From an uncultured Candidatus Saccharibacteria bacterium (GTDB lineage: Bacteria > Patescibacteriota > CPR2 > UBA1875 > CAIMLA01), in NCBI GenBank assembly GCA_964594415.1, contig CAZQLQ010000006.1:1-54140 (forward strand): DNA of 54,140 nt, read 5' to 3'. Shown here one piece after another: positions 9,247-42,228 of this stretch; within the stretch, counting starts at the first letter, position 1, and each line of letters opens with the position of its first letter. The notes under the pieces were generated by a model that saw nothing but the letters and a program-made list of their open reading frames with translations, was not told the origin of the DNA and ran no database searches. The translations under genes and the position numbers were made by a program.

Positions 9247-9272
9247 CTTTCCAACAATTTTTTTGGTCCAAA

Positions 9273-9345: not shown

Positions 9346-9369
9346 TCGTCCTTAGCAAAATTAACCATC

Positions 9370-9391
9370 AAAAAACCCACCACGTTGGGTG
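9370..9391 (-). terminator. Terminator candidate downstream of the tRNA-Ala locus
   Basis: accca-acgtgg-tgggt hairpin plus TTTTTT on the minus strand. Confidence 0.55.
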
Positions 9392-9401
9392 AGTTGTTTG
9401 A

Positions 9402-9497
9402 TGGTGGACCCTACAGGACTCGAACCTGCCACCTCCTCGGTGCAAACGAGGCGCTCCCCGCCCGTACCGAACGGTACGTTCGGGCGGGTACCAGATG
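9402..9497 (-). pseudogene. 3' part of the outer (split) tRNA-Ala(TGC): D-loop with 32-nt insert, anticodon arm, T arm, acceptor 3' strand and CCA
   Basis: Reverse complement catctggta[32 nt]gagcgcctcgtttgcaccgaggaggtggcaggttcgagtcctgtagggtccacca; lacks nt 1-12. Confidence 0.9.
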
Positions 9498-9501
9498 GAC
9501 T

Positions 9502-9631
9502 TAATAAAATAGAGTTTGCTGAATAATTGGTGGACCTGACAGGACTCGAACCTGCTACCTCCTCGGTGCAAACGAGGCGCTCTACCAGGTGAGCTACAGG
9601 CCCGCGTTATTCAGCAAACTCTATTTTATTA
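9502..9631. repeat. Perfect 25-bp inverted repeat (9502-9526 / 9607-9631) enclosing tRNA-Ala
   Basis: taataaaatagagtttgctgaataa and its exact reverse complement. Confidence 0.95.
9528..9603 (-). tRNA. tRNA-Ala(TGC), intact inner copy
   Basis: 76-nt cloverleaf, G3:U70, anticodon loop TT-TGC-AC, encoded CCA. Confidence 0.97.
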
Positions 9632-9635
9632 TCAG

Positions 9636-9878
9636 TTATTCTTCGATAATTTTGTTTATAAACCTTCTACCAGCCGCCGATTTAAAGTACTTTTCTCTAA
9701 TCAGCGCCTCGTTCAAAGTTTCAACTTTTTCATAGTATTTAATTTTTAATTTACCCTTCATTTTAGAAGTAGTTTTTGTGTGACCTCCGTTATGCTCCTG
9801 CAACCTTCTTTTGAGATTGTTTGTGTATCCTTTATATAAGGTGCCGATTTCGTCTTCTAAGATATATACGTAATACAT
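9636..9878 (-). CDS. Small stand-alone GIY-YIG endonuclease (YhbQ/UPF0213-like)
   Basis: YYVYIL...LYKGYT-NL-RRL-EHN...YYE...EA-IREKYFKS; conserved Y/R/H/E residues present. Confidence 0.92.
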   Translation of the reverse strand: MYYVYILEDEIGTLYKGYTNNLKRRLQEHNGGHTKTTSKMKGKLKIKYYEKVETLNEALIREKYFKSAAGRRFINKIIEE

Positions 9879-9901
9879 GCTTGATATTTTACCACAACCT
9901 T

Positions 9902-9962
9902 AGGCGCTCCCCGCCCGTACCGAACGGTACGTTCGGGCGGGTACCAGATGAGCTAAGGGCCC
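9902..9962 (-). pseudogene. 5' part of the outer (split) tRNA-Ala: acceptor 5' strand and D arm with 32-nt insert
   Basis: gggcccttagctcatctggta[32 nt]gagcgcct; acceptor gggccct pairs perfectly with agggtcc of the 9402 piece; 9902-9950 is identical to 9449-9497. Confidence 0.9.
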
Positions 9963-10169
9963 TCATCGAAATCCGCTGTCAAGCTTCTTAAATAGCTTTC
10001 ACTATTTATTTCGCTTTTACGCGATTTCTCCTCTTCCCCTAAAAATCTACGATTTTTGGGGACCCCACAGAAACGAACTAAATTTCAAAAAATTCTTAAA
10101 ACCTTTTTGTACTTTCGCAACGCTTCCTTTTTCGCAAAAATTTATAATTTTTTGCGAGATGACTTATGT

Positions 10170-10198
10170 ATTTTACTCTTTTAAAAGGATTTTTTCAA
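10170..10198 (-). promoter_or_regulatory. Sigma70 promoter upstream of the split tRNA-Ala/GIY-YIG unit
   Basis: TTGAAA-17-TAAAAT. Confidence 0.6.
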
Positions 10199-10204
10199 GC
10201 TAGA

Positions 10205-10453
10205 TTACATTGCCCCAAGAGAACCGAGTAATCCGTCATAGATGTAATCAGCAACGCCAATCATCACCAGAATAGAGACAATAATCATTAGTGTGCCGAG
10301 AATTCTATAAAAAGTATAGGTCCCTGCCGGGCCAAGGTATTCCTCCGCAAATCCTATGCGAAAAGTATTATCAACAATTTGATGCGTATACGCAACAAAG
10401 CTTGTTCCGAGTGCTATACCAATAATCCCAAAGATAAACTTTCCTATTGTCAT
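10205..10453 (-). CDS. Conserved small 2-TM protein (AEEYLGPAGTY motif)
   Basis: 82 aa, SD aggagg; family recognised as common in CPR genomes (from memory). Confidence 0.75.
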   Translation of the reverse strand: MTIGKFIFGIIGIALGTSFVAYTHQIVDNTFRIGFAEEYLGPAGTYTFYRILGTLMIIVSILVMIGVADYIYDGLLGSLGAM

Positions 10454-10578
10454 ACCCCTCCTGTTGAATTAGTTTACCCGTCGAGAAAATTTCTAATTTT
10501 CTCGATAAAGGAGGAAACGCGATAAGTTGCAGTAATTTTATTATTTAAAATTATGAAACCTGCCAGCAGTTTCCGACG

Positions 10579-10655
10579 TGGTGGGCGATCGAGGACTTGA
10601 ACCTCGGACCTCGTCATTATCAGTGACGCGCTCTAACCACCTGAGCTAATCGCCC
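10579..10655 (-). tRNA. tRNA-Ile(GAT)
   Basis: 77-nt cloverleaf, anticodon arm cgtca-CTGATAA-tgacg, encoded CCA. Confidence 0.97.
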
Positions 10656-10680
10656 GTGAAATCAATTTTCAACACATAAT

Positions 10681-10709
10681 ATTTTACCAAATAAAGGGCA
10701 ATATTTCAA
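10681..10709 (-). promoter_or_regulatory. Sigma70 promoter of tRNA-Ile
   Basis: TTGAAA-17-TAAAAT about 25 nt upstream of the tRNA. Confidence 0.65.
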
Positions 10710-10765
10710 CAAGTAAGTGAGATGTACAAAAAGTCCATCGAAAGTAATATAAGGTTTAAGATGGA

Positions 10766-11230
10766 GCAGTTCTCACATTCGTTCGAACAATAAACCCCTT
10801 GAAAAACTGTTCGTCCCGAGGACCGACTATTTTAAAAAGAAGTTCAGTTTTTCTTGAACTTTGCATCACTTTCTTTCAAGAGAAAGTGAGAAAAGAAATT
10901 AGATTCTTCGACTTCGCTCAGAATGACACTATTTTGTCATCCTGAGGGAGCGGAGCGATTCGAAGGATCTAGAGATCCCTCGACAGGCTCTCCGACGGAG
11001 TCCGACACGAACTCATCGGAGTCGTCGGACGGGATGACATAGGGAAGGAGTGGATCCCTGGAATGACGCCAGGGATGACCACAGCACTATAAAAAAGTGC
11101 TGGGCGAAGCAGAGAAATAGGTAGATCCCCGCGTGCGCGAGGATGACATAGGGAAGGAGTGGATCCCTGGAATGACGCCAGGGATGACAAAAAACATTAT
11201 AAAAGTAGTTCTCTGATTCGCCTCGAACAT
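10766..11230. repeat. Second mosaic cluster of REP-like palindromes
   Basis: Same units as 1-470; direct repeat of about 40 nt (catagggaaggagtggatccctggaatgacgccagggatgac) at ~11038 and ~11146; 10795-10839 matches 54087-54131 with one mismatch. Confidence 0.9.
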
Positions 11231-11264
11231 GATTGGCATTGTAAAGATGCGGGGGTAAACAATT

Positions 11265-11293
11265 AAAAAACTCCACACAAGGCGGAGTTTTTT
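11265..11293 (-). terminator. Bidirectional-type terminator just downstream of the 16S processing stem
   Basis: aaaaaactcc-acacaaggc-ggagtttttt. Confidence 0.7.
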
Positions 11294-11297
11294 CGGC

Positions 11298-12938
<1,641 letters not shown>

Positions 12939-15742: not shown

Positions 15743-15967
15743 TTTTCCTCCTTTTATCTTTGAATCCTTAAGTTATTCTGAGAAAAGTTGAAGAATCTTT
15801 GAAATACTTCAATAAATCCAGTATAACTTTTTTTATAAACTTTCTAATACTAATAGACAATTAATGATTTGTTTTGTTTTTATTATTTATTTATTTCGGA
15901 AATAGACAAACTAAAAACCGAACACCCTCCCTCCAAGTTGTATATTTTTTGACAATAAAAACTTCGA

Positions 15968-16068
15968 GGAACTGTGATCGGTTTCACCACTTGCTATTTC
16001 CCATAGGCACTTGTGAACAACCGAGTCCAACAACAGTATCGCACCCATAAGTCAAAGCAATCACTTCC
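15968..16068 (-). ncRNA. Candidate c-di-GMP-II-like riboswitch (variant), leader of the 633-aa surface protein
   Basis: P1 ggaa-gtga/tcac-ttcc, P2 tgct/agca, TGA/GGA K-turn-like element, P3, loop tcggt..ttcac complementary to 3' gtgaa-accga. Confidence 0.55.
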
Positions 16069-16168
16069 TTATATAGATATATAGATTTGTGATTAAAATT
16101 TGTTTTTGTTTTGCTCAGGTTTTGTTTTTATTTCTGTACCCCTTGTTTCCAAAAGGTTTGTAAAATTG

Positions 16169-16196
16169 ATTATAACAACATTACAGATTATGTCAA
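16169..16196 (-). promoter_or_regulatory. Sigma70 promoter upstream of leader A
   Basis: TTGACA-16-(TG)TATAAT. Confidence 0.7.
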
Positions 16197-21411: not shown

Positions 21412-21531
21412 ATTACCACCTTTCTTTTTTAAAATTAATAAATCGTTTTTGGCTTCTGTTTCAAAGCTGTCGACCATAGCTTGCCCTCAAAACAAAAACC
21501 GATCAGATTCTCTCCAGATTTAAAATATCTC

Positions 21532-21640
21532 GAGAAAATGTGACCGGTTTCATTTATATCCGTAGAAATAATTACTTACTCCACAAGAACAACTGCAATT
21601 TGCAACCTTACATTCATTGCATCAATTTTTACACATTCTC
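21532..21640 (-). ncRNA. Possible degenerate c-di-GMP-II-like leader of the tasA-like operon
   Basis: TGC-AAT-GA / GGA-GTA-AGTA core and 3' TGAAACCGG, P1 gagaatgtg/cacattttctc; pseudoknot partner poor. Confidence 0.35.
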
Positions 21641-21743
21641 TTTTTTAGTTTTTTAGCTATTTGTATTTTGATGTTATACCTAAAATTTTACCTTGTCAAT
21701 GGCAAAAAATGATGAATTTAGCAAATTTGTATAAACAATTTTC

Positions 21744-26281: not shown

Positions 26282-26872
26282 TTAGTTTACCTCAACATCA
26301 CTTGTGTTTACGGTTGTACTAAAATCGATAGTTACAGAGGAATCGCCTGTTTCGACGCTTCCATCACCAGTGTTGTAACTCGCTCTATTGCCGCCAGTTG
26401 TTGCTTCTATGTAAGCATCATTTGATACGCAAGCCTTATTCTCTACTTCTATCTCGAGACGATTGTTTTCGTCAATCTTAGCGATATTTGTAGACTCTGC
26501 TCCTGTAGTTTCATTGCTGATACTATAAGAAGCGCCGCAAGTGCCACCACATCCAATGCTTTCAACATCGATTTCTGTGCCGTTAGCTTCGTTTGTAGCG
26601 GTAATGCTTACGTCTGCATCACCAGTCATCACTTCGCCGTCCCCAGTGTTTTTATTTGCTTTATTATAACCGGTAGCAACTGTGCCATTAACACCATTAT
26701 GTAGTCTAACGCTGTTCTCAACTTCGACTTCTGTCTTGTTGTTTTGGTCAACCTTAGCTACGTTTAATGAACCGTATCCGGTCTCTTCGTTACCTATAGA
26801 TGCCATTGCAAAGCCTGATAGTAAGCTTACTCCAACCCCGGCAATAGCGATTTTTTTAGCTAGATCTCTCAT
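26282..26872 (-). CDS. NTG-repeat protein 1: signal peptide plus 2 repeats, no anchor
   Basis: Start refined to MRDLAKK (SD ggagg); two repeats linked by CGGTCG. Confidence 0.85.
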   Translation of the reverse strand: MRDLAKKIAIAGVGVSLLSGFAMASIGNEETGYGSLNVAKVDQNNKTEVEVENSVRLHNGVNGTVATGYNKANKNTGDGEVMTGDADVSITATNEANGTEIDVESIGCGGTCGASYSISNETTGAESTNIAKIDENNRLEIEVENKACVSNDAYIEATTGGNRASYNTGDGSVETGDSSVTIDFSTTVNTSDVEVN

Positions 26873-27034
26873 TTCATTCACCTCCCTTCTTAAATAACTT
26901 TACCTAATCAGTTAGGAGAAATAAGATGAAGGATAATTCCTCAAAATAGTTCGCCCAACTGCCGACCGTACATTTTAGCGGAGATTTTAAAAACCGACCA
27001 TATATCTAGACGTGGTGTTACAGAGTAACTGTTA

Positions 27035-27157
27035 GAAACAAGTCGGTTTCACTATTTGCGCTTCTCTATTTTGGAGTCCTCAGTGCTAGATCTTGTGACC
27101 AATCCCTTCTGAAAAGTTTGAGTTACATAAGCCCTGAGTCAAAGGCGCCCTTATTCC
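27035..27157 (-). ncRNA. Candidate c-di-GMP-II-like riboswitch (variant), leader of the NTG operon
   Basis: P1 ggaataag/cttgtttc, P2 gcgc/gcgc, TGA/GGA, P3 ctcag/ctgag, loop TTGG-TCAC complementary to 3' GTGA-AA-CCGA. Confidence 0.65.
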
Positions 27158-27225
27158 ATATTATTAAATTTTCGAATTTCGGCTTTCATTAGTATTTTTG
27201 TTTTGGTTTTTGTCTCCTTACGAAC

Positions 27226-27357: not shown

Positions 27358-29859
27358 TTATAGATCCAGGGATGGCTCTTCTGCATCAATTTCCTGTTCT
27401 TCAACACAAGCCACCGAGGCAATATAATCATTTTCATCTATTCGCATAATTCGAACGCCCTGGGTGGCTCTGGATATTTTTGAAATTGACTTGAGAGGCA
27501 CGCGAATTACTTGCCCCTTGCTAGAAATTACCATTACGTCTTCGCCAACTGAGGTAATCACCCGAACATCTACCATTTTTCCTGTTTTTGTGGTTACTAC
27601 TCCTGCTTTAATGCCCACTCCGCCCCTGTTATGGCTAGTGAATTGTTTTAGCTCAGTTCTTTTGCCATATCCGTTTTCCATCATAACCAAAAGCTCTGCG
27701 TCATTTATAACAATATCCATTCCAACTACTTTATCGTTTTTCTTGAGCCTAATTCCACGAACGCCCCTCGCGCTTCTTCCCATTGGTCGAACGTTTTTCT
27801 CGCTGAATCTGATCGCCTGAGCAAGGCTTGTAGCCATAATTATTTCATCATTTCCAGAGGTCTGCTTGACCCACCTCAGCTCATCACCCTTATCAAGTCC
27901 AATCGCTATAATTCCGGTCTTACGAATATTTTCAAACGCAGCAACCGAGGTTTTCTTCACCGTTCCCAATGTTGTTGCCATCATTAAAAATTTATCTTTT
28001 TCAAACTTCTCAATATTAATAATCGAAGTTACTTTCTCTTCAGGAGCAAGCTGAACCAAGTTTACGACTGGCTGACCTTTTGCTGTTCTTGAAACCATCG
28101 GAATCTCCCAAATCTTGATTTGGAAAACTCTACCAAGATTCGTAAACAACAAGAGATTGTCATGATTTCTCGTTTGAATTAGTTGCTGAACGACATCTTC
28201 CTCTTTGATCCCTCCTGTAACCCCTTTTCCGCCCCTTCCTTGAGATTTATAGGTAGAACTAAGCATCCTCTTGATATAACCACCATTTGTGAGGGTTACT
28301 ATCACATCTTCGTTTGGAATCAAATCTTCTTCGTTGAATTTATTTAAAGAATGACCGACTAGTTTTGTTCTTCTTTCGTCGCCATATTTTTCTTTGATCT
28401 CAATCAATTCGTCTTTGACTACTGCAAGTATCTTTTCTTCATGTGCAAGTAAATCCTCAAGATAGGCTATCAACTTCTGAAGTTCATTATATTCATCCTC
28501 TATCTTTTTTCTTTCAAGCCCAGCCAGGGTTCTCAGTTGCATTGCGAGAATTGCAAGAACCTGAGGCTCCGAAAAACCAAATCTGCTCATTAAGTTTTGC
28601 TTGGCTTCTTCCTGACTCGAGCTCTCCTTGATTGTCTGAATTACTTCGTCAATATTTTCAAGCGCCTTGATAAGCCCCTCTAAAATATGTGCGCGGTCTT
28701 TAGCTTTTCTAAGTTCAAACTCGCTTCTTCTTGTTACAATAATCTTCCTATGCTTAATAAACTCCTCAAGGATCATTTTAAGATTAAGAAGTCTTGGCTG
28801 AATACCGTCTACAAGAGCAATCATATTAAAGCCAAAAGACGTTTGCATCGACGTCAACTTGTAAAGCTGGTTTAAAATCTTATTCGCATAAGCATCTTTT
28901 TTGAGCTCAATAATTATTCTGACCGAAGTCTTCCTATCCGATTCGTCCCTAATATCCGAAATACCAACGACTTTCTTCTCTTTTACAAGTTCTGCAATTT
29001 TGGTAATCAAACTAGCTTTATTTACCTGATAAGGCAATTCGGAAATGAGGATATGCTGGTCTCCGCGTTTTCCCTCTTCTATTTCGGCTACTGCACGCAT
29101 TATAATACTTCCTCGCCCGCTCGCATAAGCAAGTTTGATCTGCTCGGGATCAAATATTTGTCCTCCTGTAGGAAAATCAGGACCAACAATATGCTTCATC
29201 AGATCGTCTATAGTCGCATTTTCGTTGTCTATAAGCTCAATCAAGCCGTTTACTAGCTCAGATAAGTTATGGGGCGGTATATTTGTCGCCATACCAACTG
29301 CAATCCCCATTTGGCCGTTCAAAAGCAAAACAGGAAGGCGAGTAGGGAGAATCTTTGGCTCCTTAAGAGAACCGTCATAGTTGGGTACGAAGTCAATAGT
29401 ATCCTTATCTATATCAGATAGCATTTCTTCAGCGGCCTTGGTCATTCTGGCTTCGGTATAACGCATAGCTGCAGCAGAATCTCCGTCCATCGACCCAAAG
29501 TTACCTTGTCCATCAACTAGAGGGTAGCGCATTGACCAGTATTGCGCCATACGAACCATAGATTCATAAACAGCTGAATCCCCATGCGGGTGATACTTAC
29601 CCAAAACTTCACCGACAATTAACGCAGATTTACGAAATTTGGTATTTGAACGAATCCCAAGAACGCTCATTGCGTATAGAATACGGCGATGAACCGGCTT
29701 CAAACCATCGCGAACATCAGGTAGAGCTCTCGATACTATAACGCTCATAGCGTAGTCAAGAAAGCTCTCTCGCATCTCAAGGCTTATTTCACGATCTTTT
29801 ATATATCCTATCTCTTCACCAATTGTTAATTGGTTTTCACTTCTTTCTTTTTTTGCCAT
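27358..29859 (-). CDS. gyrA: DNA gyrase subunit A
   Basis: [14 protein letters not shown] catalytic Tyr, GyrA-box QGRGGKG, CTD blades. Confidence 0.98.
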
Positions 29860-29887
29860 TACACTTCCATTTCAGATTTATTTTTAA

Positions 29888-31942
<2,055 letters not shown>

Positions 31943-32114
31943 TTATCGTTTCTTCCTTTTTTATAGCACAACCTTAACATATCACTTTTAAAAGTGATTA
32001 CACTTAATTAATTACATATGTAAAATACATACTTTTATAAGAAAAGTATACACTTATTTTATCCCTTATGCAAGGTCAATAGTGCTTAAAAAATAAATTA
32101 AAGAGTGCCAAAAT

Positions 32115-34166
32115 TTACCCCAATTGTTCTTTGAGGCTGGCAATCTCCTTATCAATATTCTTTAATTCAATCTCGTATTTTTCGAGTAATTTTTTATTCG
32201 TTTCTCTAGTTTTTATAAATTCTTCATATATTCTGTTTGAGTTCACTACAATATTGGCCTTCTTTTCTGATTTTTCATTTATTTCCTCATGAAGATTTTC
32301 TATTTTGCGAATATTCTTGTTCAGCTGTCTGTTAAGATCGTTAACGAGATCCAGGGTTCTCTTCCTGTAATTTTCTATAATTTTGTGAGCAGACTGTAGT
32401 GCTTGCATCTTGTCATTAATCGCTGCGCTATGTCTGACTTGCTTCAAATTATCCATTCTAATCTTTTGTAGCTGAAGCTCTCCAACTAAATAAGTCATAT
32501 TTGATATCAATTGGCTCAGAGCCTTTTCTTTGCTAATTTCAATAATAAATAAGCTATTCAACCCGTTTCTTATTTTAAAAGTCCTACTATAAATATCTTG
32601 GCTGCTTAATATTTCCTTTATAAGAATTTGCTTGATTCTTTCCTGTTCGACAAACAAATCAATATATCTATCAAATTCTTTTGAACCAAAAACATGAGTC
32701 AGAATTTTCCGCACAATGTTTTCGCTCAAATGTTTTTCCCTTGCTTTTACGTCAAATATTCGCCTAAGTTTGTTTTCTAAGACTAGCCTGATATGATTCT
32801 CATTTGAAATTTCAACGTCTATTTGATTCCTTGAAATAGTAATTTTTTCCTTATCATGAGCGACCTCTTTAATGCCAAGTTTGGCACAGAATCTCTTCTC
32901 AAAGTCATCAGCTTCTTTGACAAGTGAGGCAAGATAAGAGATTTCCGACATCGATGAAGCCAATTCTTCGATTTTGGGGTTTATCGAATTGTAAAGACTT
33001 AGAAATCTTGCTAAATCGGGCTGGAACAAAGAATCAATGCTAGAAAGGCTTTCTAAATTTTTGGCATAGCCATCCATTAATAAGTTGAATTCTTTGCTCT
33101 TGCTTTCTATTGAAGAAAGTTTTTCAAAATATTCAGCCCTTGAAATATCGTCAACCCTTTTTTCATTAACTATTTTTTCTGAAAAGTTTTTGTGGGTCTC
33201 GACATTTTTTTTATTTTTTTCATTTTCAACTTTTAGTTTATTAAATACTTCTCTTTCCTCTAAAGCTAGCTTGTTATTCGCATAATGAAAATTTTTGTAT
33301 CCGGTAACAATTTTGGAAAGAAGATCCTTTCTGAGGCTCGAAATAAAATTCTCTCCAACAGCAGTTACCGCGACTAATTGACCGTTTTTGCTAATCATAA
33401 TGTCATCATGCAATATACTGTCTTTTATCCGTTTTAAGACTTCTTCATTACTGTTAATCCTAATAATTTCAACTAAATCGTTTTTGGCTTTAAAAATTCT
33501 AAAATAGGTTTTCGGCACCGAATTCTCTGAATTTGAAGCAAAATACTCTTTGTTTGCAGCATCCAAAATCTCTTCCTTGGCTTTTTTAAGAATCTTATCG
33601 CCCGCAATACTTGTTGGAACCAACTTTCTTCCTCTACCCAAAACAATTTCTTTCTTTAAAAAAGCCGCATAAACGTCTTGCAGGATTGAGCTAGTTGAAT
33701 CAAGAAGCATATACAGATCGTTTGACAGATTTGGTTCTTTCGAGCTTAGAATCCTAATTAATCTTCCTTCACGATCTTCATCGTCAAATTTTTCTATACC
33801 CATTTCTGTAAAAAAAGTGTTTACCTTCGCCTTGATCAAGTTTTCGGAAGAGCCTATTAGCTCTTTCCTTGCACTTATTAACTCATCAACATACTCTTTG
33901 TACTGGACTGGTGTTTTGCCCTGTTTAGCAAGCATTGCCAACGCATCTACTATGAGGTCCACGTTTTTCCCATCACGAAGAGATTTCTTAAGATCGATAA
34001 TTTCTTTGACCACTTTAAGAACTTCCGGATCAAATAAGCTGATCTTACTAGACAATTCATTATACCTCTTATGAGCCAAAAGAAATTCTTTTTTATATGC
34101 TTCTAGCTCTGTCTTGAATTCAGGTATTAACGAACTCTCACTATTTGTATCTCTTCCCTCCTTCAA
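32115..34166 (-). CDS. Large coiled-coil hypothetical protein
   Basis: 683 aa, K/E/L-rich heptad character; starts 9 nt after the ATPase stop. Confidence 0.75.
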   Translation of the reverse strand: MKEGRDTNSESSLIPEFKTELEAYKKEFLLAHKRYNELSSKISLFDPEVLKVVKEIIDLKKSLRDGKNVDLIVDALAMLAKQGKTPVQYKEYVDELISARKELIGSSENLIKAKVNTFFTEMGIEKFDDEDREGRLIRILSSKEPNLSNDLYMLLDSTSSILQDVYAAFLKKEIVLGRGRKLVPTSIAGDKILKKAKEEILDAANKEYFASNSENSVPKTYFRIFKAKNDLVEIIRINSNEEVLKRIKDSILHDDIMISKNGQLVAVTAVGENFISSLRKDLLSKIVTGYKNFHYANNKLALEEREVFNKLKVENEKNKKNVETHKNFSEKIVNEKRVDDISRAEYFEKLSSIESKSKEFNLLMDGYAKNLESLSSIDSLFQPDLARFLSLYNSINPKIEELASSMSEISYLASLVKEADDFEKRFCAKLGIKEVAHDKEKITISRNQIDVEISNENHIRLVLENKLRRIFDVKAREKHLSENIVRKILTHVFGSKEFDRYIDLFVEQERIKQILIKEILSSQDIYSRTFKIRNGLNSLFIIEISKEKALSQLISNMTYLVGELQLQKIRMDNLKQVRHSAAINDKMQALQSAHKIIENYRKRTLDLVNDLNRQLNKNIRKIENLHEEINEKSEKKANIVVNSNRIYEEFIKTRETNKKLLEKYEIELKNIDKEIASLKEQLG

Positions 34167-34175
34167 ATGTGTTTC

Positions 34176-36632
34176 CTACAAATCTTTATTAAATTTCGCA
34201 TTTATTTCATTGTTAACTATATCACGTTGTATGCCGTACTTCAAACGAGATAATTCTTTGATTGCTTTACCCAACTCGTTATTTGGATTAGGAGGATAAG
34301 GATATCCACTCATGCTAAATGGAACGGACGGCTTTGAGCCGATAAGCACCTTTGCTATACTTGTATAATTTTCCATATTTATAAGATCGCTTTCATTGAA
34401 TATCGGCGTAAATTGTTTTGCCAGATATTCAGCATCATCGTTCCCGACTCTAAACGATATCAAGTTGCCAACGTTACCAAATACTGCATTGCGAATCTCG
34501 TCTTTCAGCTGTCCTATAAACTGGTTTGCCACAGTAAGATTTAAACGAAATTTTCTTGCCTCTGAAAGAATGGAGGCAAAGGAGTCTGTCGCAAAATTCT
34601 GAAACTCATCGACATAAAGATAGAAATCTTTTCTCTGTTCTTCCGGAATATCAGCCCTTGACATAGCTGCCATCTGAATCTTCGCTACCAAAATCATCCC
34701 GAGAAGCATCATATTCATCTCGCCAATCTCTCCCTTGGAAAGGTTTACTAGCAATATTTTCTGTTCGTCCATAATCTTTCTAAGGTTGAGTACCGATTTA
34801 TTTTGGCCGAGAATATTTCTCATTGTAGCATTTGTCATAAAAGCACCGAATTTACCGACAAACCATCCGAGCATTTCGGATTTGTGAAAATCACTTGTTT
34901 GTCCCATCTCGTTCACCCAGAAATTACGAACAAAAGGGTCCTCAACATACTTAAGTTTTTCTTTCATAAATTCATCGTCGGTAAATATTCTTGGAATTTC
35001 AATGAAGGTTCCTCCGTCAGCACCTGACATCAGAAGCAAAGCCGCATTCCTAAACCAATGTTCAAATCTTGGCCCCATTATTCCTGTATGTCCAGGGTCA
35101 TAGAGCCGATATAGCATCGCTATTGCTTCTTGGATTACAAAATCTTTCTCCTCTTGAGTTTGCGCAGAAAAAAGGTTTATGCCGATAGGACGCTCAACAT
35201 CGCTAGCGTCGAATAAAATAACATCTTCCGCTCTTTCTTTTGGAATATACGGCAAAATGTGTTCTTCTAGATCTTGTCCATGAGGATCGATGAAACAAAC
35301 TCCTTTACCTTCTTTGATATCCGAAATAATCATATTGGCCATCGTAGTAGTCTTGCCGGATCCGGTCTGTCCTATTATATAAACATGGCGGCGGCGGTCG
35401 TTTTCTGCAATGCGAATTACTTTGTCTTCGCCCCTAAAATAACTGTGACCGATTATTACTCCAGTTTCCGAAACGAAAGTGGGCGGGGCTGCTTTTTTTG
35501 ACGGTAGCCAGCGAATCCCTGGAGTAGTCACTAAATAGTTCGGCAGATGAAATATTGTTGCAAGCTCCTCGGTATTCAGTATTAATTGACGACCACCGTA
35601 AAACCAAGAAAAAATATCAGATTTGAAAAAACGATTATGAAAAAACCTAAATATATAATCGGTTGCTAATTTGTCTGCATTAACTTCTTCAAAATGAAAA
35701 CTATTCATATTTTTGTTTCCAAACTGCTCAAACGCAGAACAAATGTCTCTAACAATAGCGTCCGACCTTGTCTTTGAAGAAGTTGAGGCGATAACCCTTA
35801 TAACAGTTTCTAGATTGAGCTTGGAGGATTTTTTCTCAACCAGCTTAATAGTCTCTTCCTCCATCGGAGTCAAACGATAATTTTCTTTATCATCCGCTTC
35901 TTTTACTAGTGCAGCATCTACTAAATCGGTCATCAAAGAGGTACTTCTGTTCCCCTTTTGCATGCTTTTTGCTACTTGATTCGCCCTCATAGAATGTCGA
36001 TGACTAGTAGGTCTAAAAAGTATCTGTATCGCAGCTCCTTCCTCTTTATCTAGCTTAAATAAGGAGTTAGTAAGGCTTTCAAGCGGTTCGCTATCAAGCT
36101 CATGATAAGTTCTAAAAGGGAAATAATAAGGCTTCGTAGCAAGAAGTTCTCCTCCCGAAATGTTTTCTAGCCCCCAACCTTCGTAAAAAATATTATGCTC
36201 CTCGCTGCGCTCTATATGACAATCAGGATATTGTGCGCTTATGTTTTTTTCTACCAGATCCAAATAAGCGAAAGGTACTGCAAAGTAAAAGAATATTTCG
36301 TTGTGCTTAGCTACTATTTCGGCAGCGATATGGGGGGTACCAACAAAATAATTCCTGATAAACCTATGCCTATTATAAGTAACCCCAATATTTGAGTAAA
36401 ATGTTTCCGCAACAGAAATTACTTCTTTTAGTGCATCCCTATTATCCCTAGATTGGCCATGATTGTCTTTGGATCCACTATCCCTTGGTACCGTAATAAG
36501 AAGAGGAACCATCTTCAATGATCTTTCAATCTGTTTCTTCCAATACTTACTTCTTCGAAATACCAAAAAAGCAATAACCAATACTACCGTTAACGCCAAA
36601 AAGATTATTAATAATAATGAATAGAACTGCAT
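34176..36632 (-). CDS. VirB4/TraG/HerA-like P-loop ATPase with N-terminal TM (CPR type)
   Basis: Walker A GQTGSGKTT, IDPHG, Walker B LYVDEFQNF, SEARKF...ANQF. Confidence 0.9.
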   Translation of the reverse strand: MQFYSLLLIIFLALTVVLVIAFLVFRRSKYWKKQIERSLKMVPLLITVPRDSGSKDNHGQSRDNRDALKEVISVAETFYSNIGVTYNRHRFIRNYFVGTPHIAAEIVAKHNEIFFYFAVPFAYLDLVEKNISAQYPDCHIERSEEHNIFYEGWGLENISGGELLATKPYYFPFRTYHELDSEPLESLTNSLFKLDKEEGAAIQILFRPTSHRHSMRANQVAKSMQKGNRSTSLMTDLVDAALVKEADDKENYRLTPMEEETIKLVEKKSSKLNLETVIRVIASTSSKTRSDAIVRDICSAFEQFGNKNMNSFHFEEVNADKLATDYIFRFFHNRFFKSDIFSWFYGGRQLILNTEELATIFHLPNYLVTTPGIRWLPSKKAAPPTFVSETGVIIGHSYFRGEDKVIRIAENDRRRHVYIIGQTGSGKTTTMANMIISDIKEGKGVCFIDPHGQDLEEHILPYIPKERAEDVILFDASDVERPIGINLFSAQTQEEKDFVIQEAIAMLYRLYDPGHTGIMGPRFEHWFRNAALLLMSGADGGTFIEIPRIFTDDEFMKEKLKYVEDPFVRNFWVNEMGQTSDFHKSEMLGWFVGKFGAFMTNATMRNILGQNKSVLNLRKIMDEQKILLVNLSKGEIGEMNMMLLGMILVAKIQMAAMSRADIPEEQRKDFYLYVDEFQNFATDSFASILSEARKFRLNLTVANQFIGQLKDEIRNAVFGNVGNLISFRVGNDDAEYLAKQFTPIFNESDLINMENYTSIAKVLIGSKPSVPFSMSGYPYPPNPNNELGKAIKELSRLKYGIQRDIVNNEINAKFNKDL

Positions 36633-36657
36633 AATTCTTCTTATTTATTCCTTTTTC

Positions 36658-37017
36658 TTATTTCTTAACATCAACACCAAGGCTCTTTAAATACTTTTTC
36701 TGAAGACCCTCAACATCTTGCTCTTCTCTATATGGATTATTTTTGTCTTCCTCCATAATTTTTTCCGCTTCCTTAACATAGGAAACACTCTCTTCTTCGC
36801 CTTTTTCAATAATGACGCTGTTACCCTCATTATCTGCGTCAATTATCTCAGCACTTTGATCAATCAGTTGTTTGGCCGCTGCGACGTTGCTAGCGATTTC
36901 TTCAAAAGATACTACCGGATTTGATTCATAAGACTTTTTAAGAGTTTCGTGTTTATCGGGGACTGTTAAAGATTCCGTATCTTCTTGCCTAGCTTCTATC
37001 TTACGTTCATTTTCCAT
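36658..37017 (-). CDS. Small acidic hypothetical protein
   Basis: Start refined to MENERK after SD ggagg. Confidence 0.7.
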   Translation of the reverse strand: MENERKIEARQEDTESLTVPDKHETLKKSYESNPVVSFEEIASNVAAAKQLIDQSAEIIDADNEGNSVIIEKGEEESVSYVKEAEKIMEEDKNNPYREEQDVEGLQKKYLKSLGVDVKK

Positions 37018-37028
37018 TTCGCCTCCTA

Positions 37029-38837
37029 TTAATAATGCACTATCACCGGTGTTCCTACTGGAGCCCAATCGTAAATAAACTTTGCGACATCATAAGTAGC
37101 ATTTACACATCCATGGGAACCATTCCATTTATAATCCATACTCCCAAATGTAGTTCTCCAGTAAGCCTCGTGGATTGAATAACCCCCGCCTTTAAACCAA
37201 GTTACCCAGTGGACATTCGGCAAGTCGTAATAGTCAACGCCGGGAGTTCCTCCTGTCATTCTAGTTACCGCTGTCTTTCCAGTAACAAGCCAAGTACCAA
37301 CAGGTGTGGAATGGTAAAGGTTTCCTGTAGTGATTTTCCAACTTCCGACAGCCTCCCCTCCTTTGAGATACGCCGTCATTGTTTGAGTTGAAATATTTAC
37401 ATCGATATATTTATCCCAATTCGCAACAGTTACATATTCATAAACAACTTTTGGATCGACTACGTACGTTGGAATCTCCAATCTTACCGATTCCTGTATT
37501 GAGAGCTTATCCGCAATATTCTTGCCTAGAACCTCGGTGTTAACTGCAAGTCCGCTCTTCCCTTCTTGGATGACTGTCTGCTTATCGCCATTCTCAACCC
37601 TTATCTTTTTATTCACCGTCGCTATGTCAATCTCTGACTGTAAAAAGGAAAAATAGTTTACCATTTTAGCCGTATCTATGACCAAAGTGTACTTGGTTTC
37701 ATCAACTTTTTTGGAATAAGAAATCCACGAGGATATCGTTTCTTTGTCAGGAGAATAAATCTTCCCGTTATAAGCCAATAGAATTTTCTTATTCATTATT
37801 TTTTGTGTTTCCAGGATGGTTTCTTCGGCTGAATTATCGATGACCGCTGGCTCTACCTGTTTTGTCGCAACTGTGATCTGGGTTTGGCCAAAATTTTTTA
37901 TTGCGCTTAATACATCTGCGCTAAGTTTAGAAACAACGACCTCCCGTCCATAAACTGCCGGTATGAGTGTCACGACACCATTACTGACAGATACCTCGGA
38001 ATCCCTAGCAGTAATATTTATGTTATCTACAATTCCTTGCACAAAAGTATTTACTGCATCATTATCAATCTCATAACTTGGCTGTACCTGAAGATCAGAA
38101 CTTTTTGTGATTATCTGATCATTCACGAAAGATACTTTGTTGAATAATAGCTTTATTCTAGTGATATAATTTCCGAAGTAAGAGCTGGTTCTGCCTTTTG
38201 AATAAGCGCTAAGCGCCATAGTTTCACTATTGAAAACGATTCCTAGGTCCTCAGCCTTTGCTTGATACGTCTGGTCTGGTCCTTTTATAGTTATTACACT
38301 ATTATTTATTTTTTTCGTAATCAACCCTTGGACCTCGCTCATTGTCTTTCCACCGGCATCAATGCCCCAAACTGTAACTCCCGGGAAAACTTTATTTTCA
38401 TAGATAAACTTGTCAGCGTAAGCGGCTCCTGCTAAGGAAATCGTTATAAAGGATAAGACTATAACCGTAGTGCTCCAAGCCATAATCTTACGATGAATTT
38501 TTTTCTTTTTAGTCAAAACTTTTTTAGGTTTAGCTTTCTTTTTGCTGACTTCAGCTACGCCAAACTCTTTAAATTTTTTTTCTAAAACCTCTTTCTCTTT
38601 TTGTTCCTCATCCGTATCCCTGATTAGCATTTTCTGCTCTTCTTTCTTTAAAAAAGAAAGTAATCCCCGTGATTGTTTTTCTGCTATAATCGGCTTTTCT
38701 TGTTTGCTTTCTGCCTCAAATGAAGCTTCTTCCCTCTCAGAAACTAAACGTGAAAGCTGGAGAATATCGTCTTTAACGGACTTCGAATAATTGTGCTTTT
38801 TTATATCAAAAAATTTCTTATTTGTTTCCTGATCCAC
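37029..38837 (-). CDS. L,D-transpeptidase (YkuD) with PG-binding/VanW-like region and N-terminal TM
   Basis: IDVNISTQTM, TPVG, IHEAYW...GSHGCVN catalytic motif. Confidence 0.92.
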   Translation of the reverse strand: MDQETNKKFFDIKKHNYSKSVKDDILQLSRLVSEREEASFEAESKQEKPIIAEKQSRGLLSFLKKEEQKMLIRDTDEEQKEKEVLEKKFKEFGVAEVSKKKAKPKKVLTKKKKIHRKIMAWSTTVIVLSFITISLAGAAYADKFIYENKVFPGVTVWGIDAGGKTMSEVQGLITKKINNSVITIKGPDQTYQAKAEDLGIVFNSETMALSAYSKGRTSSYFGNYITRIKLLFNKVSFVNDQIITKSSDLQVQPSYEIDNDAVNTFVQGIVDNINITARDSEVSVSNGVVTLIPAVYGREVVVSKLSADVLSAIKNFGQTQITVATKQVEPAVIDNSAEETILETQKIMNKKILLAYNGKIYSPDKETISSWISYSKKVDETKYTLVIDTAKMVNYFSFLQSEIDIATVNKKIRVENGDKQTVIQEGKSGLAVNTEVLGKNIADKLSIQESVRLEIPTYVVDPKVVYEYVTVANWDKYIDVNISTQTMTAYLKGGEAVGSWKITTGNLYHSTPVGTWLVTGKTAVTRMTGGTPGVDYYDLPNVHWVTWFKGGGYSIHEAYWRTTFGSMDYKWNGSHGCVNATYDVAKFIYDWAPVGTPVIVHY

Positions 38838-41217
38838 TTCTTACTTTCCCTCCATTTGCTTCTATTAGCGAAATTATTTTATTGGTCACAATATCAATAT
38901 CATTTTCATTTAATGTCTTCTTTTCGCTTTGTATATCTATTCTAATAGTAATGCTCTTTTTGTTTTCACTTAGAAGCTTGCCCCTGTATATATCAATCAC
39001 TTCTGTGCTTGATACTAGCTCATCTGAAGAGTTGACGATATCCAATAAATCTTGAACATTTTTATTATTATCCACAATAAAGGAAATATCCCTTACTACC
39101 TTTGGAAATTTGCTGAATGCTTGGTAGCTTACTTCTTTAGTTTTGAAAGAGAATAATTTATCGAGGTCTATCAAGAAAACCGCTGCATCTTTTTTGATGT
39201 CGAAGTCATTCAATATCTGTCTTTTTACTTCACCAATAGAGCCTATAACAACTTCTCCCATTATGATATCGCAAGCCCTTCCCTGATTATATATAGTATT
39301 TTCGCTTGGGCGAAATTCAATTCTTTCAGACGTAAAGCTATTACTTGCCAGCAAATTATCAACCAACCCCTTAGCCACATAAAAGTCATTTCCATCTGTA
39401 TATGTTATCGGCCAGCTTATTCCTCCAATCACCCCCCCAGAAAGCCATTTTCTTTCTTCTGGAAGTTCTTTTTCACTTTTATTGACAAAAACATTACCGA
39501 TCTCAAAAAATTGCAAAGTTTCTTTATTAAACTGATTATTTCTTAAAGCCGTTAAAATACCTGGAAGCAGACTAGTTCGCATATACTCCTGGGTAGAAAC
39601 CAAGGGATTTGCAATCCGTGGAGCCATTGAGATGTTTTCCCCAATATCAATAAGTTCTTTCTTGCCGAGAAAAGAATAAGTAAGGATTTCAGTCATACCC
39701 AGAGAGGAAAGAAGTGTTCGAATCCCTTTAGTAAATTGATACATTTTATTTTGCTTAGGTATCGTATCTCCGGTGGATGGCAACGTGGAGGTAATCCTAT
39801 CGTATCCATAGATTCTTGCAACTTCTTCGTAAACATCCGCTGATACAAGAATATCTTCTCTCCACCATGGAGGTGTAACTATAAATTTATCGTTATTTTT
39901 ATCGATCTTAAAACCAAGACTAAGAAGGATACTCTCTATCTCTTCAAGAGAAATACTTGATCCTAAAAATTTATTAATTTTACCAGAATCTACTTCTAAA
40001 GAACCAGCTTCTTTCTTTTTCTCAAATACATCTATCTTGCCCGAACAAACCTCTCCGTTAGCAATTTCAGCAAGTAAATGCGCCGCATGGTCTATCGCAA
40101 TATCGGGAAGATTAAAAGGAACACCTTTTTCAAATCGAGCGACCGCCTCGGTTCGAAGACCTAACGCTCTTGCCGTTCTCCTAATTGAAGCCTTATTGAA
40201 AACAGCTGCCTCAACAAGTATATTTTTCGTATTTTCGTCTATCTCAGAATTATTTCCACCCATTACTCCCGCAATAGCTATAGGCTTCTCCTTGTCTGCT
40301 ATAAGCAACATTCCATCTGCGAGGTCTCTTTCTTCACCATCTATTGTGGTTAGTTTTTCTCCATTTTTTGCAGCACGAACGATTATCTCTGCCTTTCCTT
40401 CCTTCTGATCTATTTTGTCTAAATCAAAGAAATGAAGAGGCTGGCCAAGCGCCAACATAACATAGTTTGATATATCAACCAGGTTGTTAATTGGACGAAT
40501 TCCACACGAGCTAAGTTTTTCTTTAAGCCAATCCGGCGATTCAGATATGGTTAAGTTTCTCACGATTCTAGCCTCGTATCTTGAGCATAAACTAAAATCT
40601 TCAACAACTACATTTGCAATATCATCGGTTTTTTGATCTACTTCTCTCAAAGTTGGTAATTTCGTCTTTAGTTCTGCCTTAAGACAAACCGCAACCTCTC
40701 TTGATAATCCCAAGACGCCCATACAGTCAGGACGATTTGCAGGAATATTAACATCTATGATTTCCTCGGCTTCTAGGTGTCCACTAAGCTTATCTCCAAT
40801 TACTGATTCAGACGGCAAGACCATAATCCCATCATGATCATCACTTATCCCAAGCTCTTTTTCGCTACAAATCATACCTTCTGAATCTATACCTCTTAGC
40901 GTTGCTTTTTTTATCTCAAAATCACCGATCTTTGCACCAACCAAAGCAACAGGGACTTTTTGCCCTTTTTCTAAATTTGGTGCACCACAAACTATTTGTA
41001 GCTCTTTATCTCCCACATTTACTTGTGCCACTCTTAGCTTGTCTGCATTTGGATGTTTCTCCACTCTCAGCACTTCGCCGACAACAATATTTTCAAAACT
41101 GGCGGCAGAAAGTACTTCCTCCACCTCAAGACCAACCATAGTCAGCTTGTCTGCGATACTACCTGCGCTTTCATTTGTTTCAACAAATTCTTTCAACCAA
41201 TTATAAGGTAACTTCAT
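38818..41217 (-). CDS. pheT: Phenylalanyl-tRNA synthetase beta subunit
   Basis: KHPNADKL, CGAPN, NRPDC, RFEKG, C-terminal FPKVVRDIS (FDX-ACB). Confidence 0.98.
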   Translation of the reverse strand: MKLPYNWLKEFVETNESAGSIADKLTMVGLEVEEVLSAASFENIVVGEVLRVEKHPNADKLRVAQVNVGDKELQIVCGAPNLEKGQKVPVALVGAKIGDFEIKKATLRGIDSEGMICSEKELGISDDHDGIMVLPSESVIGDKLSGHLEAEEIIDVNIPANRPDCMGVLGLSREVAVCLKAELKTKLPTLREVDQKTDDIANVVVEDFSLCSRYEARIVRNLTISESPDWLKEKLSSCGIRPINNLVDISNYVMLALGQPLHFFDLDKIDQKEGKAEIIVRAAKNGEKLTTIDGEERDLADGMLLIADKEKPIAIAGVMGGNNSEIDENTKNILVEAAVFNKASIRRTARALGLRTEAVARFEKGVPFNLPDIAIDHAAHLLAEIANGEVCSGKIDVFEKKKEAGSLEVDSGKINKFLGSSISLEEIESILLSLGFKIDKNNDKFIVTPPWWREDILVSADVYEEVARIYGYDRITSTLPSTGDTIPKQNKMYQFTKGIRTLLSSLGMTEILTYSFLGKKELIDIGENISMAPRIANPLVSTQEYMRTSLLPGILTALRNNQFNKETLQFFEIGNVFVNKSEKELPEERKWLSGGVIGGISWPITYTDGNDFYVAKGLVDNLLASNSFTSERIEFRPSENTIYNQGRACDIIMGEVVIGSIGEVKRQILNDFDIKKDAAVFLIDLDKLFSFKTKEVSYQAFSKFPKVVRDISFIVDNNKNVQDLLDIVNSSDELVSSTEVIDIYRGKLLSENKKSITIRIDIQSEKKTLNENDIDIVTNKIISLIEANGGKVRSGSGNK

Positions 41218-41229
41218 AACACTTTCTCT

Positions 41230-42228
41230 TTAAAATTGTTCCAAAAATCGCGTATCCGGATGCCAAAAAAATCTTACATCAGGTATCCCGTACTTTATCA
41301 TTGCAATTCTCTCAACCCCCATACCGAAAGCAAAGCCAGTATACTCCTCTGGATCTATTCCCATATTAATTAGTACTTGGGGATGAACCATTCCAGAACC
41401 CAGGAGTTCAAGCCATCCCGTATAACCGCAAGATCTACAACCCTTCCCACTGCAATGAGGACAGCTTGCGTCCATCTCGGCGCTTGGTTCAGTATATGGG
41501 AAGAAATTAGGGCGAAAACGAGTCTTAGTTTCGGAGCCAAATATTTGCTTCGTAATCATTTCAAGAGTTCCTTTGAGGTCACCAAACGTAATATTCTTGT
41601 CGACAACAAGCCCTTCTATCTGGTGAAAAACCCAACTATGAGTTGCATCTTCATTTTCATTTCTATGAACTTTCCCTGGAGAAATTATTCTAATCGGAGG
41701 CTTATTTTGCTCCATGTATCTAATTTGAACTGACGAAGTATGTGTTCTCGGTAAATTGCCATTCGTGAGATAAAATGTATCCTGCATATCCCTAGCTGGG
41801 TGATCGGCATGCATATTCAATGCCTCAAAGTTATGCCAGTCATCTTCCACTTCAGGGCCATCTACAATTTCGTAGCCTAGAGAAGAAAAGATGGTAAGTA
41901 ATTCATCCATAATTCTATTAATCGGATGTATGTGACCGATATTGTAAAGTCGCCCTGGTGCAGTAACGTCAATAAAAGGCAGCTCAAGAGAGCCAAGGGT
42001 TTTTTCTTTTTCTTCAATTAAAACGTTTATCTCTTTCTGTGCATTATTTGCCAAGGCGCCTATTTCTTTTCTTTCGTTTATCTCAAGAGTACCTAGACTC
42101 TTAAGAATAGTTCCCAGTGAGCTTTTTCGCCCAAGATATTTATGCCTGACCGCTTCCATATCGCTTGATTTTGCAAGAGCAATTTCTTTCTTTGCCTCTT
42201 CAAGAATCTCTAAAATTTCTTCTTTCAT
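41230..42228 (-). CDS. pheS: Phenylalanyl-tRNA synthetase alpha subunit
   Basis: HPARDMQDTF, RTHTS, FHQIEG, FFPYTEPS, GFAFGMG. Confidence 0.98.
   Translation of the reverse strand: MKEEILEILEEAKKEIALAKSSDMEAVRHKYLGRKSSLGTILKSLGTLEINERKEIGALANNAQKEINVLIEEKEKTLGSLELPFIDVTAPGRLYNIGHIHPINRIMDELLTIFSSLGYEIVDGPEVEDDWHNFEALNMHADHPARDMQDTFYLTNGNLPRTHTSSVQIRYMEQNKPPIRIISPGKVHRNENEDATHSWVFHQIEGLVVDKNITFGDLKGTLEMITKQIFGSETKTRFRPNFFPYTEPSAEMDASCPHCSGKGCRSCGYTGWLELLGSGMVHPQVLINMGIDPEEYTGFAFGMGVERIAMIKYGIPDVRFFWHPDTRFLEQF

Follow-up and report, generated by a model that had tools for sequence, protein, structure and literature searches.

A strongly remodelled c-di-GMP-II-type leader is predicted to control an operon for secreted repeat proteins in a Patescibacteria genome

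The 54,140-nucleotide (nt) stretch of contig CAZQLQ010000006.1 analysed here (the window), from an uncultured Candidatus Saccharibacteria bacterium, contains on its minus strand a 476-nt gap between gyrA (27358-29859) and an open reading frame (ORF) of 199 amino acids (aa; 26282-26881) that begins an operon for proteins with NTG repeats. An initial annotation had proposed that the leader in this gap, here leader B, contains a variant riboswitch resembling the class II aptamers for cyclic dimeric guanosine monophosphate (c-di-GMP-II), one that might sense a different or host-derived signal. The locus raises two questions: is leader B a member of this riboswitch class, and, if it is, which ligand would it be expected to bind? 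Judged by comparison of sequences, leader B is a genuine representative of the c-di-GMP-II fold whose architecture has been strongly remodelled; since it falls short of the family's curated score, it is better described as a structural variant than as an annotated member. The core proposal of a c-di-GMP-II-like aptamer in the NTG operon leader is supported, and we put the probability that leader B is a transcriptional c-di-GMP ON switch of this class at roughly 0.7. Two further candidate copies, A and C, lie elsewhere in the window (Table 1), and related leaders from other contigs are numbered with the prefix L.

When B is set against the printed consensus of Rfam family RF01786, all c-di-GMP-II elements can be placed in it and in the canonical order. 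The family consensus that we took from printed alignments reads P1(11)-A-ggC-gaUGAa-P3(8 base pairs [bp], loop UgUAUuUGGGCACuUu)-gGA-Gcc-AGUgGUGCAACCGgC-P1'. With RF01786 and its Clostridium acetobutylicum representative 3Q3Z, B shares the order P1, J1/2, P2, kink-turn (NNUGA/GA), P3 and pseudoknot; a loop U-U-G-G-N-C-A-C (UUGGGCAC) facing a tail G-U-G-N-A-A-C-C-G-R (GUGCAACCG) with two unpaired A's; A-A-A-U-R before that tail; a terminator overlapping the aptamer 3' end; and surface or pilus genes downstream. In B the loop UUGGUCAC and the tail GUGA-AA-CCGA form eight of eight pairs, AAAUA stands between the P2 3' strand and the tail, and the kink-turn of the class would be provided by CUUUGA and GA. 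The 8-bp P1 (two G-U pairs), the complementarity of loop and tail, and the small extra hairpin between P3 and P2 are thus present as the initial annotation had described them. B departs from RF01786 in having a P2 of 4 bp rather than 2-3, a P3 of only 5 bp, a P3 loop of 50 nt rather than 16 (with its own small hairpin, and with UUGGUCAC in its 3' part), a hairpin, P2a, between the kink-turn GA and the P2 3' strand, a G at J1/2, and a host among the Patescibacteria (candidate phyla radiation, CPR). An alternative P3, UUUUCAG/CUGAGGA, which is also the stem of minimum free energy (MFE), was rejected, as only CUCAG/CUGAG is matched in L039, L060, L110 and L112.

The position of B within the family becomes clearer from its relatives. 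The window contains the two-box pattern TTGGTCAC..AAATNGTGAAACCG just once, and 0/100 shuffles contain it. A metagenome scan with its B-derived form TTGGTCAC-N(15-45)-AAATNGTGAAACCG returned 93 loci, 68 of which have one fixed 38-nt spacing and represent compact RNAs sharing UCAC/GUGA. Sixteen compact RNAs were tested against Rfam: 12 score 54.7-67.3 bits with RF01786, above its gathering score, and one, L040, passes RF03169. Since compact RNAs with UCAC/GUGA reach the gathering scores of the clan, this pairing is widespread within the known family as a compensatory variant. The initial annotation had pointed to it as a covariant of the canonical pairing; the G-C to U-A change in the pseudoknot is indeed compensatory relative to the RF01786 consensus, but it does not mark B out, being common to members that pass the gathering score (13/16 tested across the clan) and present in all 68 compact environmental RNAs. 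The same scan returned extended forms, B-like (L039, L064, L060) and A-like (L035), none of which is at the Rfam threshold. Further leaders came from contigs encoding 81%- and 73%-identical NTG proteins (orthologues L001, L002, L003), from contigs with GyrA proteins 95%, 89% and 76% identical (L110, L111, L112), and from the metagenome-assembled genome (MAG) GCA_002338125.1 at NCBI, whose TasA leader L013 has the same synteny, pheT-YkuD-...-gyrB-gyrA-leader. Insertions of the B type are found in L039, L064, L060, L013 and L035, in the orthologues L001, L110 and L111, and in L112. Through these intermediates B is linked to bona fide c-di-GMP-II members. The motif was not found in the leaders of more distant NTG-protein homologues (L004, L006, L011), the TasA leaders L012 and L015 have the terminator only, and a scan of viral contigs gave zero matches. 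A scan of a genome collection with a three-box pattern derived from A and B gave one match, inside an Echinicola enolase gene, which we attribute to chance. As a separate observation, the environmental contigs L040 (409-877), L059, L078 and L086 each contain a pair of class II aptamers that flank a small conserved ORF (MPQCPYPE...) and are separated by a few hundred nt, and in L064 (~3400-3700) the 3' end of a second aptamer (GUUGUGAAACCGGCC) lies just upstream of the extended-type aptamer.

Compensatory change among the extended leaders provides the main evidence for the helices. We aligned 12 extended leaders to the structure by hand, padded them with N to hold the columns, and counted pairs; a MAFFT alignment was structurally wrong in the middle and was replaced by the hand alignments. 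The helices are anchored between the invariant boxes UUUGA, UUGGUCAC, GA and AAAUR-GUGAAACCG. Standard pairs occupy 96.4% of 364 cells, versus 33-48% with slid partners, double-sided changes occur in 24/41 pairs, and 0/500 shuffles reach any of these measures. In this hand-fitted alignment P1 is 92% paired with seven pairs changed on both sides, P2 100% with five, P3 97% with seven, and P2a 100% with five of its six pairs changed in this way (CUUCUU/AAGAAG in L001, GAAC/GUUC in L013, CGAA/UUCG in L039, CUCAU/AUGAG in L060 and CCUU/GAGG in L112). P1, P2 and P3 are therefore predicted to nest in the c-di-GMP-II order with compensatory changes. By eye, the small hairpin just 5' of UUGGUCAC in the P3 loop has counterparts in L001 (CUUU-CAGC-AAAG), L110 (CUU-ACAGA-AAG) and L112 (CUUUC-GACAUA-GAAAG), which lends modest support to its being common to B-lineage leaders.

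Covariance models were in part consistent with this assignment. At Rfam gathering thresholds the window yields just 16S rRNA and tRNAs, and B is missing both from that scan and from a whole-window scan at E <= 10. In E-value mode over 1 kb, RF01786 is the sole riboswitch match of B and its best match in the clan, ahead of the models for the GAG/GCG variants (RF03169 and RF03170; clan CL00127), which have the same fold and whose gathering scores (40 bits for RF03169) B does not reach. L040 passes RF03169, which is also the best match of copy A (15968-16068; 18.9 bits, below its 40-bit gathering score), and copy C (21532-21640) has no Rfam match in the c-di-GMP-II clan. All riboswitch-type Rfam matches of A and B fall solely in this clan; both copies are far below threshold and their scores are not significant alone. 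A covariance model that we built from 55 distinct compact members (R1) ranked B first in the 54-kb window (25.9 bits, E 2e-5) and A second (23.2 bits, E 1.3e-4), with copy C at 10.2 bits and E about 1. R1 aligned copy A correctly, through P1, P2, UUUGA, the P2 3' strand and the tail.

Several of our results weigh against the assignment of B. The RF01786 gathering score is missed by a wide margin (17.7 vs 53.5 bits, E 1.1 in the 1-kb search) in a match that aligns just P1 and the 3' tail, and 0/6 related extended leaders reach a clan match at E <= 1 (26-kb search). Only the 3' third of B is aligned by either RF01786 or R1, and the R1 register for B is wrong, with the P2a hairpin taken as P1/P2, so that we discarded this register and count the score as evidence for the 3' box only. 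R1 and the metagenome pattern were, moreover, seeded from B's own two boxes, which makes the score partly a matter of construction; the hand alignment was fitted to the model, and the pair counts lean towards it accordingly; and the pseudoknot, invariant in the extended set, provides zero internal covariation. Finally, the single-sequence MFE of B is no better than that of shuffles (z = +0.63), as one expects of an RNA with a pseudoknot and several branches; the case for the structure of B is comparative, not thermodynamic. The initial annotation had named a lack of similarity to the c-di-GMP-II models or their variants as what would count against it; because similarity to RF01786 exists, that is not what we found, though it lies far below the gathering score. 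The MFE value and the Rfam E-value of ~1 would also suit a leader that resembles the class by chance and is an ordinary AT-rich 5' untranslated region with a terminator-like hairpin. The boxes are, however, absent from 100 shuffles, orthologues keep them and covary in four helices, and A and B are the top two matches of a covariance model of an independent family. We regard chance resemblance as extremely improbable, and as ruled out by the shuffles (0/100) and by covariation in the orthologous leaders.

The second question is what such an aptamer would bind. In 3Q3Z the ligand is contacted by A13, A14, U37, G39, U60, A61, C68, A69, A70, C71, C72, G73 and A74 (PMC7288161). C68 is replaced by A in B jointly with its pairing partner, as in compact members above the gathering score. 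We placed B on this numbering through a 3Q3Z sequence in which all 13 listed letters match at an offset of 6; on that assumed mapping, 11/13 contact nucleotides are the same in B. Those presumably kept are U37, G39, the A after P2, A69, A70, C71, C72, G73 and A74, with the correspondence of J1/2 to A13/A14 uncertain, and we take the unpaired A's of GUGA-AA-CCGA to be A69/A70 of PDB entry 3Q3Z. The pocket of B would thus be essentially conserved, with one debatable position.

That position, together with the lack of a c-di-GMP enzyme in the window and the related loci, makes up the remaining points against c-di-GMP. J1/2 is a single G in B, as the initial annotation had noted, most members have A, and the A13/A14 region contacts the ligand in 3Q3Z. 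The reading of this G as noncanonical stands insofar as it differs from the usual A; it falls within the variation of the family, in which the alignment column of the 55 compact members holds A 38, G 9, U 7 and C 1, and among relatives of B the junction is G in L110 and L112, A in L001 and L111, and GA in L039 and L060. No GGDEF, EAL, HD-GYP or PilZ domain was found in the ~44 window ORFs scanned with Pfam, and a motif screen of all fetched CPR-type related loci gave no c-di-GMP enzyme. Groundwater MAGs of ultra-small organisms (Patescibacteria/DPANN) are reported to encode diguanylate cyclases (PMC9938205), and a window of ~54 kb is small against a genome of 0.7-0.85 Mb, so the absence is uninformative: as the initial annotation had said, no cyclase was found in the window, but the different or host-derived ligand it drew from this is unsupported.

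These points bear on a reading in which the fold is the same and the ligand has changed, CPR-type extended aptamers sensing another cyclic dinucleotide or nucleotide, possibly host-derived. Candidate changes for such a shift are the J1/2 G of B, L110 and L112 (three of four B lineages, at the ligand-contact region of 3Q3Z), CCAA in L112, and the loop CGG-UUGU-UCAC of copy A, whose 4-nt insertion adjoins two ligand-contacting A's and is conserved in the L112 orthologue; Rfam also holds variants of this class as separate families (RF03169, RF03170), and the lack of a cyclase in the window would fit. Against it, the contact nucleotides are mostly unchanged, a J1/2 G occurs in 9/55 otherwise canonical-looking compact members, the sister lineage L001/L111 has J1/2 A with the rest of the aptamer unchanged, the gene context is classical for c-di-GMP, cyclase genes are reported in ultra-small MAGs, and a 54-kb window cannot show genome-wide absence. 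We therefore consider a changed ligand unlikely. Decidedly unlikely, in our estimate, is a broader version of this idea: that within a lineage-specific CPR branch of this fold, which has a k-junction where the kink-turn would be and an expanded P3 loop, at least one sub-type (copy A or the J1/2-G type of B) has shifted or lost c-di-GMP specificity, so that these episymbionts would tune surface proteins and TasA-like fibres to another, possibly host-derived nucleotide signal.

A c-di-GMP switch at B would most readily act on transcription. An intrinsic terminator in B has a 5' arm that shares sequence with the 3' strands of both the pseudoknot and P1, and the design recurs in copies A, B and C, where GAAACCG... 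with the P1 3' strand makes the 5' arm of a hairpin ending (G/U)UCGG-UUUUU, as well as in compact members. RNAfold hairpin energies are -29.5 (A), -17.5 (B) and -28.8 (C) kcal/mol. The combination of 3' box and terminator arm, TCGGTTTTT, occurs three times in the window, each time in a minus-strand leader behind one of the three best minus-strand promoters, and in 0/100 shuffles. Transcription would begin at ~27219, from the consensus promoter, and the aptamer would fold into P1, P2, the kink-turn with its extra hairpin, P3, and the pseudoknot between UUGGUCAC and GUGA-AA-CCGA. With c-di-GMP bound, the pseudoknot and P1 would hold GAAACCGACUUGU, so that AUGGUCGG-UUUUU could not form the terminator and RNA polymerase would go on to transcribe the three NTG surface-protein genes; in the unbound state the terminator would form and transcription would end at ~26989. 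The aptamer and the terminator cannot form together, so a bound ligand should allow read-through, and we infer that the ligand of B is c-di-GMP and the switch of the ON type.

Downstream of the terminator lies a second conserved element. The motif GGTCG[AG] follows the terminator within 70 nt in 14/78 distinct leaders, vs ~2.5 expected, concentrated in those of CPR type. Because the element repeats the terminator 3' arm, it is complementary to the aptamer 3' end. As a box GGUCG(G/A)C(A/G)G(U/C)U(U/G)GG it stands 9-23 nt past the U-tract at 26952-26967 and ~21470-21488 (minus strand), and in L001, L003, L110, L112, L035, L039, L064, L013 and L012. A CUCC tract right after the U-tract (26978-26986, minus strand; AAUCUCCGC), with counterparts in L001 (CUCUCC), L003 (UCUCC) and L110 (UCCCC), is complementary to the Shine-Dalgarno sequence GGGAGG at 26879-26888, and these two segments are joined in the MFE structure of the full leader, so that translation might be subject to control as well.

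The conserved box past the terminator has no role in the riboswitch model, and would suit a reading of B as a relic aptamer with no ligand, its attenuator constitutive or modulated by temperature, protein or transcription speed, so that P1 and the pseudoknot would compete with the terminator without a small molecule. The large insertions of B would fit such decay, as would copy C, which in the same genome has kept P1, 3' box and terminator without the core. In B, however, UUGGUCAC, GA and AAAUA-GUGAAACCGA are invariant across orthologues from organisms with GyrA 76-95% identical, and the surrounding helices and loops change compensatorily. A core that is invariant while the helices around it change by compensatory substitutions implies purifying selection on the pocket, and we judge the relic reading very unlikely for B.

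Table 1. Positions in the window of leader B and its parts, of the NTG operon, and of copies A and C.
Feature	Position	Strand	Remark
Leader B aptamer	27035-27157	minus	exact, P1 5'-strand start to P1 3'-strand end, GGAAUAAG...CUUGUUUC
P1, 8 bp, 2 G-U pairs, GGAAUAAG/CUUGUUUC	27150-27157/27035-27042	minus	sequence reading
J1/2 = G	27149	minus	sequence reading
P2 GCGC/GCGC	27145-27148/27058-27061	minus	sequence reading
Kink-turn bulged strand CUUUGA (CUU-UGA)	27139-27144	minus	matches consensus gaUGAa
GA, other kink-turn strand	27077-27078	minus	matches consensus gGA
P3 CUCAG/CUGAG	27134-27138/27079-27083	minus	also matched in L039, L060, L110, L112
31-nt insertion, 5' half of P3 loop, ending in hairpin CUUUU-CAG-AAGGG adjoining UUGGUCAC	27103-27133	minus	
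Pseudoknot 5' strand UUGG-UCAC in P3 loop	27095-27102	minus	complementary to 27043-27052; fits RF01786 consensus UUGGGCAC
Pseudoknot 3' strand GUGA-AA-CCGA	27043-27052	minus	complementary to P3 loop; two unpaired A's
Extra hairpin P2a CUC-CAAAAUA-GAG	27064-27076	minus	between P3 3' strand and P2 3' strand; then AA
Intrinsic terminator of B	26989-27050	minus	5' arm GAAACCGACUUGU 27038-27050; 3' arm AUGGUCGG then UUUUU 26989-27001
Conserved box GGUCGGCAGUUGGGCG	26952-26967	minus	22 nt past terminator U-tract
Sigma-70-type promoter, TTGACA-18 nt-TATAAT	27255-27226	minus	12/12 consensus matches, top match of promoter scan
5' leader before aptamer, A/C-rich G-poor tract (ACAAAAACCAAAACAAAAA...)	27158-27219	minus	sequence reading
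First operon gene, secreted NTG-repeat protein, 196-199 aa	26282-26881	minus	ORF listing
Second operon gene, 722 aa	24045-26213	minus	ORF listing
Third operon gene, 299 aa	23087-23986	minus	ORF listing
Copy A, aptamer (15968-16068) and terminator	15913-16068	minus	upstream of 633-aa Big_13/fn3 surface protein
Copy C	21494-21640	minus	P1, box UGAAACCGGUCAC, terminator; upstream of tasA-sipW-LTD genes

Copies A and C differ from B in what they have kept. Copy A lacks the P2a hairpin and has AA for GA after P3, and in its pseudoknot loop, which has the 4-nt insertion, two U's might base-pair with both of the adenines that serve as ligand contacts in the canonical fold. It recurs nearly identically in L112 (20396-20497), in an organism with GyrA just 76% identical. 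A 12/12 promoter with a TG extension stands before copy A (15913-16196, minus strand). In copy C we found no UUGGUCAC, no pseudoknot partner and no recognisable P2 or kink-turn, and we do not count it as a third functional copy. It retains the P1 5' strand, and over 23 nt its 3' box with the P1 3' strand (UGAAACCGGUCACAUUUUCUCGA) matches the intact L035 TasA leader exactly. Copy C is probably a degenerate aptamer that still carries its attenuator (21494-21699, minus strand).

The genes behind the three leaders provide a gene context classical for c-di-GMP, with secreted or surface proteins and TasA/SipW. Copy C precedes genes for a TasA-family protein, a SipW-type signal peptidase (TIGR02228, 98 bits) and a lamin-tail-domain (LTD) protein; the extended relatives L013, L035 and L064 precede TasA-like genes, and compact relatives precede genes for signal-peptide proteins and PilT-like ATPases. 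The mechanically called start of the TasA-like ORF (ATG at 21477; region 21412-21477, minus strand) falls inside the conserved GGUCGAC box, and the true start is probably the internal Met of MKRILMSL..., with its own AAAGGAGG, ~66 nt downstream. In Clostridioides difficile, class II riboswitches stand before genes for adhesins and pili whose expression rises when c-di-GMP is high (PMC11477304). B resembles the Cdi2 ON switches there (CD2831, CD3246 and the type IV pilin operon) in setting a class II aptamer before surface genes, with regulation at B being a prediction. It differs in belonging to another phylum and in the targets at this locus: NTG-repeat proteins, a TasA-like fibre protein with a SipW peptidase, and a Big_13/fn3 protein. 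In the literature searched we found no paper combining Patescibacteria, c-di-GMP and a riboswitch. The locus suggests that ultra-small, probably host-attached bacteria regulate their surface proteins and TasA-like fibres through a c-di-GMP-type second messenger, and it gives the NTG-repeat proteins a functional hint, as proteins co-regulated with adhesion or biofilm factors. It also shows that a whole remodelled branch of a familiar riboswitch class goes unseen by curated covariance models; a dedicated model would probably bring to light many further members in CPR genomes.

The P2a hairpin suggests a further structural feature. A k-junction, as described by Lilley, is a kink-turn, with its 3-nt bulge and tandem G-A/A-G pairs, in which a third helix interrupts the non-bulged strand (PMC4316175). 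The layout GCGC-CUU-UGA...GA-[CUC..GAG]-AA-GCGC in B fits this definition at the level of sequence, with a 3-nt bulge and G-A on one strand, G-A on the other, and the inserted hairpin, which covaries, on the non-bulged strand before the C helix (P2). L060, copy A and L035 depart from the layout in having AA for GA, and L013 has no recognisable UGA. We infer that P2a forms a k-junction at this site; it would be an apparent natural swap of a simple kink-turn for a three-way k-junction inside one riboswitch family, and useful to RNA structural biology.

At the locus itself, the initial annotation had placed the leader between a TTGACA/TATAAT promoter and the operon, and both are there, the promoter with all 12 consensus positions and the operon with three genes (Table 1). 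The promoter is kept in L110, L001 and L111, and A/C-rich tracts similar to that of leader B occur in copy A, L001, L110, L112 and L035. In copies A and B the tract (ACAAAAACAAAAC...; A/C-rich, G-poor) spans the 40-90 nt from the predicted transcription start to P1 (16075-16165 and 27158-27219, minus strand), and in copy A and L112 a conserved small hairpin, CUUUUGGAAACAAGGG, precedes it. The true start of the first NTG gene is probably the ATG at 26872, behind GGGAGGUG, and its product has only 8 homologues among 5.8 billion proteins. The 722-aa and 299-aa proteins have the same NENTG.../NTGDG..TGD repeats plus a C-terminal membrane segment; all three operon products are secreted or membrane-anchored proteins built of these repeats; none belongs to a Pfam or NCBIfam family. 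The nearest named GyrA relatives are labelled 'Patescibacteria group bacterium' (74% identity), relatives lie on contigs of 0.72-0.85 Mb, and homologues of the TasA-like protein are named candidate division WWE3, Paceibacterota and Patescibacteria, all of which makes the earlier description of a reduced-genome organism reasonable.

The gene order pheS-pheT-YkuD transpeptidase-small ORF-DUF8128/HerA-like ATPase-(683 aa)-gyrB-gyrA-riboswitch (27358-42228, minus strand) is conserved between the window and L112, and L013 has it too, minus the 683-aa gene. The riboswitch is followed by the NTG operon in the window and L112, and by tasA-sipW in L013.

Elsewhere in the window, the 16S rRNA gene (11401-12860) is followed by tRNAs at 10582-10655 and 9531-9603 (minus strand), with no 23S rRNA before the next protein genes (8992-12860), so that the rRNA operon appears split. 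A tRNA-like sequence at 9405-9477 (24.1 bits, sub-threshold; region 9402-9950) is 95% identical over 55 nt to the tRNA at 9531-9603, and the 49 nt at 9449-9497, which hold an internal palindrome, are repeated perfectly at 9902-9950. Short dispersed repeat families lie beside the 16S/tRNA region and at both window ends (1-430, 10766-11232, 54057-54131). One of these repeats is perfect over 61 nt (1-61 = 10930-10990); others extend over 45-57 nt at 96-98% identity and contain the cores GGATGACA and TAGTTCTC...CGAACGATA.

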